Source of the DNA: Kagunavirus BCH953P1
Strand: one strand, 5' to 3'
Sequence record: OZ035754.1
Length of the DNA: 44,622 nt
Under the pieces are notes generated by a model. It saw only the letters and a list, made by a program, of their open reading frames with translations. It did no database searches and was not told the DNA's origin. Position numbers and translations under genes: made by a program. Below are positions 26,286 through 37,588 of the stretch, piece after piece (positions within the stretch are counted from its first letter, which is position 1; each line of letters begins with the position of its first letter).

Positions 26286-26600
26286 TTATAATTCCTTATA
26301 TTGTTGGGGTATGTGCTTACTATAATAGTCTGCTATTAGGGTGTCAACCTGTTTTATAGAGCCAACCACAAAAACATTTGCGCCGCGTTTGCGCATCCGC
26401 TCATGTTCTCGTAGCTGGTGCGGGTCTGGCTTCGTGTTTTCGTCTTTCTTAACCTCGACAAACCATATGATGCCGCCGGGGAGCATTACCAGCAAGTCGG
26501 GGGCGCCGGAGCGCCCCTCGTAGGAAAGTTTACGAACGAGGCCCCCCAGGGCCTCGAATCGGTCTTTCGCGTATTTCTGTACGCGGCCCTCTTTAGTCAT
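26286..26600 (-). CDS. VRR-NUC domain nuclease (PD-(D/E)xK)
   Basis: 104 aa; GAPDLLVM ... FVEVK pattern typical of VRR-NUC. Confidence 0.55.
   Translation of the reverse strand: MTKEGRVQKYAKDRFEALGGLVRKLSYEGRSGAPDLLVMLPGGIIWFVEVKKDENTKPDPHQLREHERMRKRGANVFVVGSIKQVDTLIADYYSKHIPQQYKEL
26319..26347 (-). promoter_or_regulatory. sigma70-type promoter P3 (TTGACA-N17-TATAGT), A-family
   Basis: On minus strand TTGACACCCTAATAGCAGACTATTATAGT; lies in the 3' end of the VRR-NUC gene, upstream of 26030..26284. Confidence 0.55.
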
Positions 26601-29837: not shown

Positions 29838-29890
29838 CGTGATTTCTCGCTTTTCAGTTTACTCCGGGAACTGCCCGGCCAGTGATTAGA

Positions 29891-29919
29891 ACTATAATAG
29901 CTAACTATTCAGGTGTCAA
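29891..29919 (-). promoter_or_regulatory. sigma70-type promoter P4 (TTGACA-N17-TATAGT), A-family
   Basis: On minus strand TTGACACCTGAATAGTTAGCTATTATAGT in the intergenic gap upstream of 29214..29837. Confidence 0.6.
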
Positions 29920-32975: not shown

Positions 32976-33006
32976 TTGTTTCTCTCCTCTCGTTTGGTAT
33001 GGGCTA

Positions 33007-33035
33007 ACTATAATAGCGAACTATTCACTTGTCAA
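33007..33035 (-). promoter_or_regulatory. sigma70-type promoter P5 (TTGACA-N17-TATAGT), A-family
   Basis: On minus strand TTGACAAGTGAATAGTTCGCTATTATAGT; perfect -35. Confidence 0.6.
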
Positions 33036-33099: not shown

Positions 33100-33315
33100 A
33101 TGCAACCATCTGAACTAGGCATCCGTGTAGAACAGCGCCGTAAAGAACTCGGCATTTCCCAACGCCGTCTGGCTGTCCTGGCCGGTGTTTCCCAGGGCGC
33201 GATTAACCAGCTGGCACTCGGTGTAACTAAGGACGTCCGCCCGTCGACGTTGTTTAAGCTGGCGGAAGTGCTGCAAGTAGACGCCAAGTGGCTGGCGTTC
33301 GGTGAAGGGGCTTAA
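33100..33315 (+). CDS. XRE-family helix-turn-helix transcriptional regulator (Cro/CI-like)
   Basis: 71 aa; HTH ISQRRLAVLAGVSQGAINQL; SD AAGGAG; opposite orientation to flanking genes. Confidence 0.75.
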   Translation: MQPSELGIRVEQRRKELGISQRRLAVLAGVSQGAINQLALGVTKDVRPSTLFKLAEVLQVDAKWLAFGEGA

Positions 33316-33332: not shown

Positions 33333-35573
33333 CTACTCCAAATCCTCCTCTGTCACCACCAGCATTTCATTCGGTTCGTATATTGTCTTCGGCCTTAGTC
33401 TATCCCCTATTCTTTCAGGTATACGATATGTTCTCGGTACTACTTCGCCATTAGCGTCGCAGCCTAGCATCAACTCACCGTCTTTCAGCATTTTATCAAG
33501 ATGGGTGTTAGTCACAGAAAAGTCACCGGAACGGGCCACTATCTGCTGCTGGGTAAAACCGCGACCTGTATCATCTGACTGTTGCAGGTCTTCCAGTGCT
33601 GAAAGTATTGACTCCTTCCTTACTTCATCCCTGCCGCGTTTAACTTCTTCCTTTACTTTTTGTTTACCTTCGTTAGTTAACCCTTCTTCCCGCTCTTTCT
33701 CCTCGTCAGTTTTGAACGGCTCGAAACCCCACGGCATAAGCACAAGCGCCTTGTGCGGCTCCGGCAGGTCGAGGTTTACTATTGTGCCGTATTCCTCTGT
33801 GCTACCGAGGAACTCAACCGCGCGATACTCTTTCGGCGGAGGAGCTTCACGAAACTGTACAGACTCCAGCACCATACCAACCGTTTTCTGTTGAGGCCCG
33901 TGCTTAAATTTCGAATGGTATACGTTTATCTGGCGGTCGGTTGCACGTTCAATTGTCAGTTCCACGTCGACGCCCGCATACAGCGCCCCACTACCACGGG
34001 CTTTCTTTCCGCCCTTCGGCGTATGGTGGACGACGCCAACCGCAGCTTTAGTCGCGTCGCGTACTTCTTTCAGTATGGCGATAACTTTACCCATGCCAAT
34101 CGCCGTTGATGAACTGTTTTCGTCGAACTTATCAATCGTCAGGGCCAGCGTCTGGTTTAGGGTGTCGAACGCAACCATACCGATTGGCTCGTCGCCGGCG
34201 GTTTCACGCATCAACTTAATAAGGCTTTTCAGTTTGCCAACTTCGCCCATGTCGATGACATGTACATAATCTTTACCTTCCTCGCCGTATTTAGCCGCGA
34301 GTGCGTCAATACGTGTGCGTGTAGCTGCGCCGCCCTCACCGTCAATATAGAAATGGTGGCAACGCTGGGTATCCGCCCCTGCAAACCGGTATCCGGCGGC
34401 GCTCAGGTACATCATCCCCAGCGTATAGAACGATTTGTACGTGCCGGATTCCCCAACAATATCCCAGATACAATCTGACGGCATGTACCCCTCAACGACG
34501 AAATCAGCCTTTACCGGTTCCGGTAGCTCGTCCTCTTCTGAGTCATCATCGTCTTCCAGGTCGTCGAGGCTGCATGAAACAGATTCACGCGCACCCCATC
34601 CGATAGCCTCGGCGACTTCACTGAACGGCAGCCCGGTCGCATCACACGCGTATTTCCACACTTCTTTCGGTGACATGCCTTCGGTCGCCGCAATGTCGGT
34701 GTCGTGAATCATGGTTACGTTAGGTGCGGCGTAGCCCTCACGTGGGAAGCACAGCAGGAAGTCGTCCGGACGCGGTGTCGGGTCGCTGTAGTTTTCTGCA
34801 TGCTCTGGTGTGGCTGGCATCTTAAGGCCGCGTGGTGTCATAGCACCGCCGTACTCGAACGCCAACGCCTCAAAAGCGTCCGTAAACGCTGTGCGTAGTT
34901 CTTCCGGTATCTGGTAGTCAGATGCGCTGCTCACCTCGTAATCCGGGATGCCCTCCAGTAACTCGTCCGGGTCAATCAGGTCGTTACGGCGCGACCAGAT
35001 AACCTGCGAGCCGACCGGCGGCAGGTACATCGGCTGAGACAGAGTGAACCCGCTGCGGTCCGCACCCATGCCTTTGAAGAAGTGTTCCAACAATCCATGA
35101 CGAACGCGGATGATGTCACCGCCCTCAACCGTTCGGGCCAGCGGCATGACGACGCGAAAGCGCGGGGCTTCGTCTGTGTGTGATGCCGTGGTGTAGAGGC
35201 ACATGGCTTTACGGCTGCGCTTAACCAGGCGCACAGCTTCCTGATACTCTTCCAGGGTTGCGCTGTCGAAGTCCAGGTACGTCAGCGACGATTTGTTTAC
35301 AGACGCGTCGCAGCGGTAGAAGAAGCCCCGGCGCGCTTGCTTAAAGTCACCGGTTTCCGGGTCTTTTACGGTGCTGTGCGTAGAATCGCACGCGGCAGTA
35401 ATATAGCCCGGCGCGGTCTTCGGATTAATCCCGTCACGAACGGCATCGAGCGGCTGGATTAACTCTTTCAGGTCGTCCAGTGTTGCCGTGTGAGTGGTTC
35501 TGACGTTTATATCCTTTTTCTCTGCCCGCGCGTTGCGACGAGACCACGAGTAGGATAAAATTACATCGGACAT
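33333..35573 (-). CDS. DNA primase/helicase (RecA-like AAA_25-type ATPase domain in C-terminal half)
   Basis: 746 aa; Walker A-like VGESGTYKS, Walker B-like region; N-terminal half unassigned (primase-like by position). Confidence 0.6.
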   Translation of the reverse strand: MSDVILSYSWSRRNARAEKKDINVRTTHTATLDDLKELIQPLDAVRDGINPKTAPGYITAACDSTHSTVKDPETGDFKQARRGFFYRCDASVNKSSLTYLDFDSATLEEYQEAVRLVKRSRKAMCLYTTASHTDEAPRFRVVMPLARTVEGGDIIRVRHGLLEHFFKGMGADRSGFTLSQPMYLPPVGSQVIWSRRNDLIDPDELLEGIPDYEVSSASDYQIPEELRTAFTDAFEALAFEYGGAMTPRGLKMPATPEHAENYSDPTPRPDDFLLCFPREGYAAPNVTMIHDTDIAATEGMSPKEVWKYACDATGLPFSEVAEAIGWGARESVSCSLDDLEDDDDSEEDELPEPVKADFVVEGYMPSDCIWDIVGESGTYKSFYTLGMMYLSAAGYRFAGADTQRCHHFYIDGEGGAATRTRIDALAAKYGEEGKDYVHVIDMGEVGKLKSLIKLMRETAGDEPIGMVAFDTLNQTLALTIDKFDENSSSTAIGMGKVIAILKEVRDATKAAVGVVHHTPKGGKKARGSGALYAGVDVELTIERATDRQINVYHSKFKHGPQQKTVGMVLESVQFREAPPPKEYRAVEFLGSTEEYGTIVNLDLPEPHKALVLMPWGFEPFKTDEEKEREEGLTNEGKQKVKEEVKRGRDEVRKESILSALEDLQQSDDTGRGFTQQQIVARSGDFSVTNTHLDKMLKDGELMLGCDANGEVVPRTYRIPERIGDRLRPKTIYEPNEMLVVTEEDLE

Positions 35574-35631
35574 ATTGTATATTCCTTCAGCAAGTAATTT
35601 GGCCTCGGCGCTCTAACGTCGGGGCTTTCTT

Positions 35632-35865
35632 TTATTCCAGGTCTTCTAAAGTAGCGGCCATTCCGCGAACTTCAGCAACAGCACTATATTTCCCACCAAC
35701 ATTTTTCACGACACCAGATTTAACCAGCACCTTCAACGACCCTTCAATAATGGCGGAACTATAGTACCTAAAATAACTACGGCGCAAGTCGATAACGCTG
35801 CACGACCCTTTTTTACGTGTTAACGAAACGACTGCCGTGAATACGCGTGACTGGAACTCGGTCAT
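35632..35865 (-). CDS. hypothetical protein (77 aa)
   Basis: Track ORF; C-terminus ends EDLE like two other proteins in this block. Confidence 0.5.
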   Translation of the reverse strand: MTEFQSRVFTAVVSLTRKKGSCSVIDLRRSYFRYYSSAIIEGSLKVLVKSGVVKNVGGKYSAVAEVRGMAATLEDLE

Positions 35866-36032
35866 TTCACATTCTCCTTAATCCACGCTTCCACTTTCTC
35901 CGGGTCAAACGTACCCGGCTGACGGCGGCCCATAATGCGGATACAACAATCCGGGAACTTCCCGCTCTTTAGCCAGTTATTCAGTGTGCGACGAGTAACC
36001 CCGATACGCTCGGCTACTTCATTCTGTGTCAT
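35862..36032 (-). CDS. small HTH DNA-binding protein (AlpA/excisionase-like fold), probable early regulator
   Basis: HTH MTQNEVAERIGVTRRTLNNW; start taken at internal ATG 36032 because the predicted promoter P9 lies at 36066..36093 (track ORF extends to 36065). Confidence 0.5.
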   Translation of the reverse strand: MTQNEVAERIGVTRRTLNNWLKSGKFPDCCIRIMGRRQPGTFDPEKVEAWIKENVK

Positions 36033-36065
36033 TCTCAAACCCTCAGTATCAGTTAACGAAACCAA

Positions 36066-36093
36066 GTATACATTGCGAATAATGGGAAATCAA
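36066..36093 (-). promoter_or_regulatory. candidate sigma70 promoter P9 (TTGATT-N16/17-TATACT) for the minus-strand replication operon
   Basis: Read on minus strand; moderate match. Confidence 0.35.
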
Positions 36094-36182
36094 ACATAAT
36101 CGCACCTATTGACATTATGAAAATCTTCGTTTAAGGTGCTTCTATATCTTAGTTACTTTGATTCCTGTTCACCTTGTAAGAA

Positions 36183-36216
36183 TGTTTAACCCGTGCGTCA
36201 AGCAAAGGGTTAAACA
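36183..36216. promoter_or_regulatory. inverted repeat tgtttaaccc / gggttaaaca (10-bp arms, 14-nt spacer) in the early control region
   Basis: Seen directly. Confidence 0.4.
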
Positions 36217-36370
36217 CAGGCTTACTGAACACGAGAATTATCATAACTTTCCTTCCTTAGTATCTCCGGTTGCCCTGGGCAAGCTATATTCTCATCAACG
36301 GCATATCTCTTAAGTATCTGATTTTCTTAATGTGCCGTAGATTCGCAACCGTAAAAATGTAACCCTTACC

Positions 36371-36394
36371 GGGCGGGCTTAAGGCCCGCCCTTT
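36371..36394 (+). terminator. GC-rich hairpin gggcgggc-ttaag-gcccgccc followed by TTT
   Basis: Seen directly, in intergenic region upstream of P6. Confidence 0.4.
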
Positions 36395-36464
36395 AGTTAC
36401 AAAGTAATAAGAATAAAGGCACGACCCTGCCTGAAGAATCACAACGGCAACGTAACTATTCTCT

Positions 36465-36493
36465 TGCACACCCCAACATAATAGGATACTATT
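36465..36493 (+). promoter_or_regulatory. sigma70-type promoter P6 (TTGCAC-N17-TACTAT), B-family
   Basis: TTGCACACCCCAACATAATAGGATACTAT; near-identical to P1/P2; 25 nt upstream of the first plus-strand early gene. Confidence 0.6.
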
Positions 36494-36517
36494 CACTTAT
36501 CGTAACGAGACAGAGGA

Positions 36518-36712
36518 GTGAGGGTTATGTTTAAGAAGGGTCAGTTGGTGAAGATTTTGGAGACCGGAGAGTTAGCGGTTATCTCATTTATGCACCACAG
36601 AGAATATGAGGTCTATTTTGCTAAATCTTTAACGGAGTCCTATCTCACCGTGCTATACGCGCAAGATATGAAACTCATCGGCAACAATTTTAAATTCAAA
36701 GGGGCGAAGTGA
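36518..36712 (+). CDS. hypothetical early protein (64 aa)
   Basis: Track ORF; SD GGAGTGAGGG. Confidence 0.5.
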   Translation: MRVMFKKGQLVKILETGELAVISFMHHREYEVYFAKSLTESYLTVLYAQDMKLIGNNFKFKGAK

Positions 36713-36912
36713 TGGAAGAATTATTTGAGGAACTGAAACATCATGAGTTCGAGGAGATATATTTTGTAGCTGGACGCTACGAGGCGCATTTAGTGGACGG
36801 GATTACACTTATTACGGTGGATAGCCTGCAAATGTTAAATAGCTTACGTGCGCTACGAACGGCATCGAATCATGATGCTCGTGCCGACGACTCTGAGGGA
36901 GGTTGCCGTTGA
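36712..36912 (+). CDS. hypothetical early protein (66 aa)
   Basis: Track ORF 36709..36912, start set at ATG overlapping upstream stop. Confidence 0.45.
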   Translation: MEELFEELKHHEFEEIYFVAGRYEAHLVDGITLITVDSLQMLNSLRALRTASNHDARADDSEGGCR

Positions 36913-37169
36913 TGAATAATACTGAACTGAAAACAGTAGCGGAATATAACCGTAAAATACGGGTCATGCGTCGTGGTGCGGGGCTGGAGCAGTTCTATAA
37001 CATGTGGCGCATTGCGACGCGCGACCCTGAGTTTCTTCAGACAGGTTATTATTCCATTAAAGGCATTATCCCGATTCGTGCACGTAAGGATTATGGTTGG
37101 GTTCGTGAGACCCCTAATCTTTTGTGGTGCTGGTATTGTGGTGAATTCTGGGTAAGGGTTAAGGACTGA
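36912..37169 (+). CDS. hypothetical early protein (85 aa)
   Basis: Track ORF 36903..37169, start set at ATG in TGATG overlap. Confidence 0.45.
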   Translation: MNNTELKTVAEYNRKIRVMRRGAGLEQFYNMWRIATRDPEFLQTGYYSIKGIIPIRARKDYGWVRETPNLLWCWYCGEFWVRVKD

Positions 37170-37240
37170 GTTATGAATAATTACCCGTTTATTTTAATCG
37201 TCAGCGTCGTTTATGTGGCGCACGTGTTGTGGGGTTTGGT

Positions 37241-37441
37241 ATGAGCAAGTGGATTAAGTGTAGTGAGCGGATGCCGCGCTGCGAGCCGGGTAGGTGGTCA
37301 AAAGATGTTATTGCACTAAGTGATACTGGGGAGGTGTTTCGTCTGGCCTGTCAAGGTGAATACTGGCAAAGAACGTCAGCGTTCGTTGAATCAGGTTCAG
37401 AAAAAGTGGTTGCATGGATGCCGTTCCCTGATGAGGACTAA
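37241..37441 (+). CDS. DUF551-like protein (copy 1)
   Basis: MSKWIKCSERMP...W..WMPFP pattern typical of the DUF551 phage family; paralog at 37592..37777. Confidence 0.55.
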   Translation: MSKWIKCSERMPRCEPGRWSKDVIALSDTGEVFRLACQGEYWQRTSAFVESGSEKVVAWMPFPDED

Positions 37442-37444
37442 GTT

Positions 37445-37588
37445 ATGAGAGAAGCATTTGAACGGTGGGCCGTCATCGAGGGTCTGCCGGTCAACAAGGG
37501 TTCAAAGAAAGAGTACCTGAACGTTAAGACCCGTCTCGCGTGGCGGGCGTGGAGAGCTGGTGTGCAAGCGGTTATGGACCGGGGGTGA
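37445..37588 (+). CDS. hypothetical small protein (47 aa)
   Basis: Read from sequence, fills the gap between the two DUF551 genes. Confidence 0.3.
   Translation: MREAFERWAVIEGLPVNKGSKKEYLNVKTRLAWRAWRAGVQAVMDRG

Follow-up and report, generated by a model that had tools for sequence, protein, structure and literature searches.

Results

A gap between divergent operons

The window analysed here is the whole of record OZ035754.1 (44,622 nt), an essentially complete genome of Kagunavirus BCH953P1 in the subfamily Guernseyvirinae, and our subject is a gap of 450 bp (36066-36517) that lies between its leftward replication operon and its rightward early genes and that, we propose, probably holds the gene for a structured non-coding RNA. 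The left border of the gap is the minus-strand gene of the open reading frame (ORF) list at 35862..36032, for a 56-aa HTH_17/AlpA-excisionase-like DNA-binding protein (Pfam HTH_17, E=2e-7; PHROG 66), which heads the replication operon and is followed there by genes for a 77-aa protein and a 746-aa helicase-primase with an AAA_25 domain. The right border is the plus-strand gene at 36527..36712, for a 61-aa protein (PHROG 12538, function unknown) with which the rightward series of small early genes starts at 36527. The minimum of the cumulative GC skew coincides with the gap, which fits a switch of transcription direction and is alone no sign of an origin.

A sequence-only reading of the gap had listed a leftward promoter (P9), an early rightward promoter (P6), a further promoter with a TTGACA hexamer, a 10-bp inverted repeat and a GC-rich hairpin followed by TTT, all of which lie where it placed them. 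We keep its promoter names; helices P1 to P6 of the RNA, introduced below, are always called helices.

The region 35500-37200 matches 238 phage records, whose hosts are Escherichia, Salmonella and a few others; OZ035805.1 is 99.8% identical. With a 498-nt query spanning the gap, 446 phage records were matched, 298 of them over >=80% of the query length, at 87-100% identity in one Kagunavirus clade and 75-79% in Jerseyvirus, from Salmonella. For comparison we assembled 41 distinct versions from clade-A Kagunavirus and Jerseyvirus, drawn from IMG/VR loci, metagenome loci, GenBank records and ten further public assemblies. Depositors and gene callers have mostly left the gap without genes, and the small coding sequences that are called vary from record to record.

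A conserved promoter facing the early genes

Read directly from the plus strand, TTGACA (36109-36114), a 17-nt spacer and TAAGGT (36132-36137) form a predicted sigma-70-type promoter (36109..36137) from which transcription would start at about 36144. It stands back to back with the leftward promoter P9 of the HTH/replication operon, a promoter-scan match (TTGATT-17-TATACT, 36093->36065 on the minus strand), and itself scores under the hexamer threshold of that scan. Promoter-like matches are at chance level (3 versus 2.6 +/- 1.5 in shuffles), so that consensus matching alone is insufficient and it is conservation across relatives that raises these promoters above chance. Neither the hexamers of P9 nor the block ATAATGGGAAATCAA varies among clade-A Kagunavirus and Jerseyvirus, and the longer block ATAATGGGAAATCAA-N-CACCTATTGACAT is likewise unchanged. 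The -35 hexamer of the RNA promoter is unchanged in 41/41 distinct sequences; its -10 hexamer reads TAAGGT in Kagunavirus, TAAGTT in Jerseyvirus and, as the one exception, TAAGAT in a metagenome variant (L106), and its spacer is 17 nt long, or 18 nt in one of the 41. The record of Salmonella phage Jersey (KF148055.1) annotates the homologous site as a predicted promoter, and in clade-B/C Kagunavirus, otherwise unalignable here, TTGACT-17-TAAGCT occupies the equivalent position. The sequence-only reading had named the two adjacent HTH proteins as candidate regulators acting here; inspection of the promoter block by eye, with no formal search, showed no conserved palindrome resembling an operator.

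In six Kagunavirus loci (L003, L004, L013, L104, L106, L113) an extra 50-aa gene separates the HTH gene from the leftward promoter, with the RNA region intact.

A rod-like hairpin maintained by compensatory changes

Promoter and terminator would bound a non-coding transcript of ~250-255 nt on the plus strand (36144..36398), and the corresponding sequence (36144-36400) folds with a minimum free energy (MFE) of -79.6 kcal/mol (z = -5.4). Its 5' part, domain 1 (36151..36249), is a rod-like hairpin of 99 nt with six helices, supported by individual folds, a covariance model (R1) and an alignment of 35 distinct sequences (A5). Helix P1 pairs AGUUAC with GUAACU, helices P2/P3 gain one additional U-A pair in Jerseyvirus, a 4-nt CCUU bulge is conserved and helix P4 pairs GUAAG with CUUAC. 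Above it, helix P5 is made of TGTTTAACCC (36183-36192) and GGGTTAAACA (36207-36216), a perfect 10-bp inverted repeat in a repeat search, and encloses the apical helix P6 (UGC/GCA), whose loop is GUCAA in the window and usually NNCAA across variants. The inverted repeat at 36183..36216 that the sequence-only reading had listed as an item of its own is thus one helix of this larger hairpin.

Helices P5 and P6 are hypervariable in sequence and always complementary. Helix P5 occurs in at least six unrelated sequence versions, each fully paired: UGUUUAACCC / GGGUUAAACA; UGCUUAACCC / GGGUUAAGCA; CGCUUAA / UUAAGCG; CCGCC / GGCGG; CCGCUUGA / UUAAGCGG; and CUUAGCG / CGUUAAG. Two loci (L109 and L112) show a clean single swap from U-A to C-G in this helix. 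Between near-identical phages (L005-L015, L104-L113) the apical part of domain 1 is wholly replaced while the flanking helices stay constant, and such replacement of helices P5 and P6 is seen even among phages whose HTH proteins are 100% identical.

In alignment A5, standard pairs fill 96.8% of the paired cells versus 80.0% in column shuffles (0/500 reach the observed value), pairing percentages that are somewhat inflated by the fitting of A5 to the model. Sliding the partners by 1-3 columns lowers pairing to 28-44%. Both sides have changed in 18 of the 36 pairs of domain 1, including all 10 of helix P5, and the covariation score is 0.453 versus 0.168. Independently of A5, the complementarity of helix P5 is also visible in each sequence folded alone; the domain 1 fold was recovered in this way for every variant, additional metagenome variants included. 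The paired columns contain 48 G.U/U.G cells versus 5 A.C/C.A cells, an excess that identifies the plus strand as the folding strand, and the consensus fold reaches -28.9 kcal/mol on the plus strand versus -18.3 kcal/mol on the minus strand. The G.U bias, the consensus energies and the orientation of promoter and terminator thus agree on a plus-strand RNA.

Model R1 found domain 1 in all clade-A and Jerseyvirus loci (33-121 bits). In clade-B/C Kagunavirus it did not detect the domain, the 5' domain there being different.

An octamer within helix P3, TGTTCACC (36168-36175), equals the origin iteron of phage P4 that is bound by the alpha primase-helicase of that phage. We rejected it as an iteron and regard it as probably a coincidence: it is present in a single copy, it is non-conserved in Jerseyvirus, where the equivalent is TGTTTCAC, and the helicase type differs (AAA_25).

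An exposed linker and a second conserved domain

Domain 1 is followed by a pyrimidine-rich, anti-Shine-Dalgarno-like linker, UUCCUUCCUUAGUAUCUCCG (36250..36269, plus strand), that is predicted to be unpaired in both MFE and consensus folds. The pyrimidine-rich stretch between the domains, UUUCCUUCCUUAGUAUCUCC, is nearly invariant, and the changes observed are mostly C<->U. Domain 2 (36270..36345, plus strand), which contains the motif AAGUAUCUGAU, has a core conserved in sequence. Its pairing and that of the terminator were judged on a MAFFT alignment of 31 full-length RNAs, in which five pairs of a candidate helix (36270-36282 / 36289-36301) vary one-sidedly with pairing kept through G.U. The core, CUAUU..AAUC..AAGUnACUGAU..UGCCGUA, is the one part of the RNA that clade-B/C Kagunavirus shares. 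In those phages homology does not extend beyond the middle and 3' parts, and ~250 nt of structured sequence follow the sigma-70-like promoter at the equivalent position.

The only match to the IHF consensus (WATCARNNNNTTR) in the gap, AATCAGATACTTA (36311..36323, minus strand), falls inside the domain 2 core. There are 6 such matches genome-wide on both strands; by eye the motif is kept in all clades, with an A-rich tract 5' of the match, and it is possibly a signal acting at the DNA level.

Complementarity between the phage genome and the 26-nt linker region alone extends to at most 10 nt, approximately the chance level. The best-scoring candidate target, at -30.7 kcal/mol, is ACCGGAGAUGCUGGGAUGAAAG on the minus strand (12409-12388), the start region of a gene of the HAD/polynucleotide-kinase type, which is complementary to the linker together with its 3' flank and lies ~5 standard deviations below the mean of 516 start regions. 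As a conserved target it was rejected, as the gene is found in few relatives only and the linker is near-invariant, and the complementarity is probably a coincidence or a lineage-specific target. The leaders of P6-type promoters, in which complementarity to the linker had been noticed by eye, fell outside the top 15 of the target ranking.

An intrinsic terminator in a mosaic 3' end

A terminator scan places an intrinsic terminator at 36371..36398 on the plus strand, with the stem GGGCGGGC / GCCCGCCC, the loop UAA and then UUUAGUU. The hairpin (36371-36391) has nine pairs, of which eight are G-C and the ninth is a closing U.G pair, and is flanked by GUAAC (36359-36363) and GUUAC (36396-36400). 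It is the top terminator-like site within 35000-37500, in a setting where such sites are enriched (8 versus 2.3 +/- 1.3 in shuffles), and its energy of -18.6 kcal/mol goes with a positive d'Aubenton-Carafa discriminant. Two pairs of the stem are compensatory, C-G having become U-A in 7 sequences and A-U having become G-C in 1. The terminator would end the predicted RNA ~70 bp upstream of promoter P6.

Across relatives the 3' end is a mosaic of four module types. T1, the type of the window, has UUUAGUU and a hairpin whose energy lies between -15 and -19 kcal/mol, and its discriminant is positive; T2 has another GC hairpin, set in a longer stem with UUUUAAG at its end; T4 has GGUGCCUUCGGCACC and (CUCA)n repeats; and in the Jersey-type T3 the terminator and the P6-like promoter after it have been lost by a ~190-bp deletion. 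In the sequences examined, the helix P5 version CCGCUUGA/UUAAGCGG is always accompanied by the T2 module. In clade-B/C loci (L023, L026, L027, L032, L035, L044) a (CTCA)n run in the 3' module lies just upstream of the GGUGCC hairpin, with four copies in most and about seven in L023. Jerseyvirus loci (L002 at ~1900-2100; L020-L022, L037) have an extra module of ~100 nt, AAUGCCGAAAGAUUCUUAGUCUAC...UUGCCUUACGGCAAGCGC, that is placed between two P6-like promoters, is fused directly to domain 2 in T3 phages and may be a second small transcript.

No conserved reading frame and no known RNA family

Among 18 representative sequences, no ORF on either strand of the gap is kept in frame or length. Rfam 15 gave no match at gathering thresholds over the whole window, the best sub-threshold match being Hrs12 (21 bits versus a threshold of 70; E=0.7), and a scan for tRNA and tmRNA found none. 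Literature searches found no description of an RNA from this gap.

The early promoter P6 and other repeated promoters

Downstream of the terminator, the plus strand reads as the block AAGAATCACAACGGCAACGTAACTAT followed by promoter P6 (36434..36492), with TTGCAC (36464-36469), a 17-nt spacer and TACTAT (36487-36492). P6 matches 7/12 consensus positions, and Kagunavirus clades in which identity of the HTH gene drops to 73-81% still match at 95-98% over 36434-36551. The cassette TTGCrCACCCCAAyATAATAGGrTACTATTCA has three copies in the genome, one at 36462-36496 on the plus strand and two on the minus strand, each with a similar leader, ATCGAAACGAGA.... The minus-strand copies (4264->4233 and 13809->13778) are identical 32-mers that precede, respectively, a 78-aa gene (4200-3964) and the gene for a 68-aa membrane protein (13765-13559; PHROG 1039, immunity to superinfection). 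Both of these genes lie inside plus-strand gene blocks, a moron-like arrangement. Judged by its repetition, P6 is a genuine promoter type that is reused and, as predicted from its position, serves the early-right genes; as it is repeated and lies downstream of the terminator, those genes would be independent of the upstream promoter.

A second promoter family is found on the minus strand at 26318-26347, 29890-29919 and 33006-33035, its reverse complement, TTGACACCTGAATAGTTAGCTATTATAGTT, being TTGACA-17-TATAGT. The copies are spread through the leftward block, and the last adjoins a Cro/CI-type HTH gene (33100-33315).

Distribution

Outside the Guernseyvirinae, no homologue was found in 5,426 complete E. 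coli genomes. The sole plasmid match, at the block upstream of P6, is an E. coli 'plasmid' record of 44,086 bp (H91, CP088689.1), and a scan of genome contigs returned one chance match and one Jersey-like contig (L102, NZ_JACVEL010000022.1). This 19-kb contig, from the assembly of the Bacteroidota species Taishania pollutisoli, has a Jersey-type domain 1 (34.9 bits) and is presumably a contamination; both it and the 'plasmid' look like Guernseyvirinae phage DNA under other labels. A metagenome scan with the promoter block yielded 11 loci only, every one of the same family.

Discussion

A free structured RNA as the favoured interpretation

The interpretation that we favour, with some confidence, is that the gap is the gene for a free, early, structured regulatory non-coding RNA of ~250 nt, transcribed from the plus strand between ~36144 and ~36398. 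Comparison among the relatives shows the fold and its strand, and that the gap does not code for protein. We infer that the RNA is made, is discrete and acts as free RNA, most likely as a riboregulator or a protein-binding RNA. The sequence-only reading had proposed a plus-strand RNA of roughly 260 nt, with the TTGACA promoter before it and the hairpin at 36371-36394 at its end, and the conserved promoter, the covariation, the G.U bias, the covarying terminator and the lack of a conserved ORF all speak for that transcript.

On this interpretation, the host sigma-70 RNA polymerase would start at TTGACA-17-TAAGGT, and the transcript would fold into the 99-nt rod of domain 1, an exposed pyrimidine-rich linker and domain 2. 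In phages of the window type it would end at the GC-rich intrinsic terminator, upstream of the separate promoter P6. The contact surface may be the invariant single-stranded CCUUCCUUAG linker together with the domain 2 core, with the hairpin as a scaffold or stabiliser.

Several points weigh against a free RNA. The search of the phage genome gave no convincing target for base-pairing, the one Kagunavirus RNA-seq paper found reports gene-level expression only, and alignment A5, as said, was fitted to its model. The U tract of the terminator is short (UUUAGUU), and a canonical terminator is found only in T1, the GC hairpins of T2 and T4 being without a good U tract and T3 having none, so that in T3 phages the transcript probably continues toward the early genes. 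A discrete RNA of 250 nt thus appears well founded for the window, and some members of the family may have a transcript that runs on.

Alternative explanations

It is possible, though in our judgement clearly less probable, that the RNA is instead a cis-acting 5' leader of the early-right operon, with the terminator as an attenuator for transcripts from the distal promoter. Such a leader might make the polymerase termination-resistant, as HK022 put does, be the target of a phage antiterminator, or provide a hairpin for RNase III processing or stabilisation. The terminator does sit between the promoter and a long run of plus-strand genes; its U tract is short, and read-through is likely in T3, which lacks a terminator, and in T2 and T4, which lack a canonical one. 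The rod of domain 1, at ~36 bp, is long enough for an RNase III substrate, and in some variants folded without the 3' arm of the terminator the linker can pair with the G-rich 5' arm. However, the partner of that 5' arm differs from variant to variant (in MFE folds only), with no consistent antiterminator helix; the conserved promoter P6 between the terminator and the first gene makes a leader unneeded for expression; no leader peptide is conserved and Rfam yields neither a riboswitch nor a known leader family, though a protein could still act as the sensor; and no Q-, N- or LoaP-like protein was identified among the genes examined. The sequence-only reading had left the choice between a small RNA and a leader or attenuator undivided: the RNA itself is supported, and no consistent antiterminator was found, yet the T2-T4 modules without a canonical terminator keep the leader alive as an explanation.

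We consider it unlikely that the gap acts at the DNA level, as a replication origin, as a single-strand initiation (ssi) signal for the helicase-primase or as an IHF-bent regulatory region, with an RNA fold that is unselected. The gap adjoins the helicase-primase operon at the cumulative GC-skew minimum, one of the 6 IHF-consensus matches of the genome lies within its most conserved core, and a hairpin in single-stranded DNA would likewise tolerate G.T pairs on one strand. Nevertheless, the change of transcription direction explains the skew switch equally well; there are no iterons, only two-copy repeats of 9-12 nt, a chance length; no DnaA box with <2 mismatches was found; and AT content is <=0.72 in any 40-nt window. 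A pure DNA element would, moreover, leave the flanking promoter and terminator, both on the folding strand, unexplained, and clade-B phages retain a promoter here despite their different 5' domain.

That the gap contains just two divergent promoters and a spacer, with incidental hairpins conserved through recent common ancestry, seems very unlikely to us. Promoter consensus matches are indeed at chance level and many of the sequences are closely related, but recent ancestry does not account for 18 doubly changed pairs or for at least six unrelated versions of helix P5 that pair perfectly, even alongside identical HTH proteins, and pairing collapses in the slid-partner controls, which preserve relatedness. 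Finally, the chance that the gap encodes one or more small proteins, such as the 51-aa ORF at 36158-36313 (plus strand) or the 70-aa ORF at 36496-36284 (minus strand), is negligible: such ORFs exist in the window and some automated annotations call short coding sequences, but none has the same length, frame or start codon throughout the relatives, frames are broken by indels of 3, 10 and 12 nt and, in Jerseyvirus, by net changes in length not divisible by three, there is no Pfam match, and substitutions track base-pairing rather than codons.

Replacement of the apical stem

Returning to the free RNA, the base of its hairpin, its linker and domain 2 are constant, and helices P5 and P6 have undergone at least six replacements and are still paired. 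We advance as a doubtful, speculative extension that this RNA of a virulent phage might carry specificity. The swaps could stem from a put-like antiterminator or from a priming or exclusion RNA whose apical stem sets compatibility in co-infection; they could also reflect diversifying pressure from an RNA-targeting host defence. Either mechanism, if real, would add a new type of RNA-based control to those of lytic siphoviruses.

Significance

The Guernseyvirinae are among the most often isolated phages of E. coli and Salmonella and are widely proposed for therapy and biocontrol. In hundreds of deposited genomes this gap, of 450-700 bp, is empty or filled with spurious small ORFs; recognising the RNA would correct those annotations and supply an Rfam-type family for the region. 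It would also draw attention to an RNA-level step, so far unstudied, that belongs to the very start of infection and to the point where transcription switches between the replication and early operons. Compact, and with clear handles for compensatory mutation in helices P4 and P5, the element is genetically easy to test.

Comparison with known systems

Lambda OOP, P22 sar, P1/P7 c4 and the P4 CI RNA are small phage RNAs with their own promoter and intrinsic terminator, and the gap RNA resembles them as a short, structured, non-coding transcript made by the host polymerase in a phage control region. Each of those RNAs either is antisense to the operon that it controls or is processed from it, whereas the gap RNA overlaps no gene on the opposite strand and diverges from the P9 transcript without overlap. 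It is also 2-3 times longer, shows no sequence or Rfam relationship to them and belongs to a virulent phage.

The lambda pR'-tR' '6S' transcript, of 194 nt, is the substrate of Q antitermination. The likeness lies in a constitutive promoter and a terminated RNA of ~200-250 nt followed by a long rightward operon; the differences are that neither a Q-like protein nor an arrangement of the qut type was identified and that a separate promoter, P6, comes after the terminator. The body of the gap RNA is a covarying structure, while no conserved fold is known to be required in the body of lambda 6S.

Origins offer a further comparison. The complementary-strand origin of phage G4 is a single-strand initiation signal, as are ssiA and ssiB of RSF1010. 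The gap is like RSF1010 ssiA/ssiB, ColE1 RNA II and the origin promoters of T7 and T4 in having a strand-specific hairpin or transcript beside a helicase-primase at a GC-skew minimum, and unlike them in having no iterons, DnaA boxes or unwinding element; the promoter scan found no antisense partner promoter.

Like the RNase III sites of T7 (R0.3/R1.1) and of the lambda N leader, domain 1 is a long, irregular hairpin, here covarying, near the 5' end of an early transcript, but those sites lie within mRNAs with no terminator before the gene, and the gap RNA has one. With putL and putR of HK022 the gap RNA shares a structured RNA just after an early promoter and before a terminator, position alone being comparable. 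The put RNAs are ~70 nt long with two adjacent stem-loops, whereas the gap element is one 99-nt rod with a second domain; a put-like role would nonetheless explain why selection in domain 1 acts on the fold rather than on the sequence.

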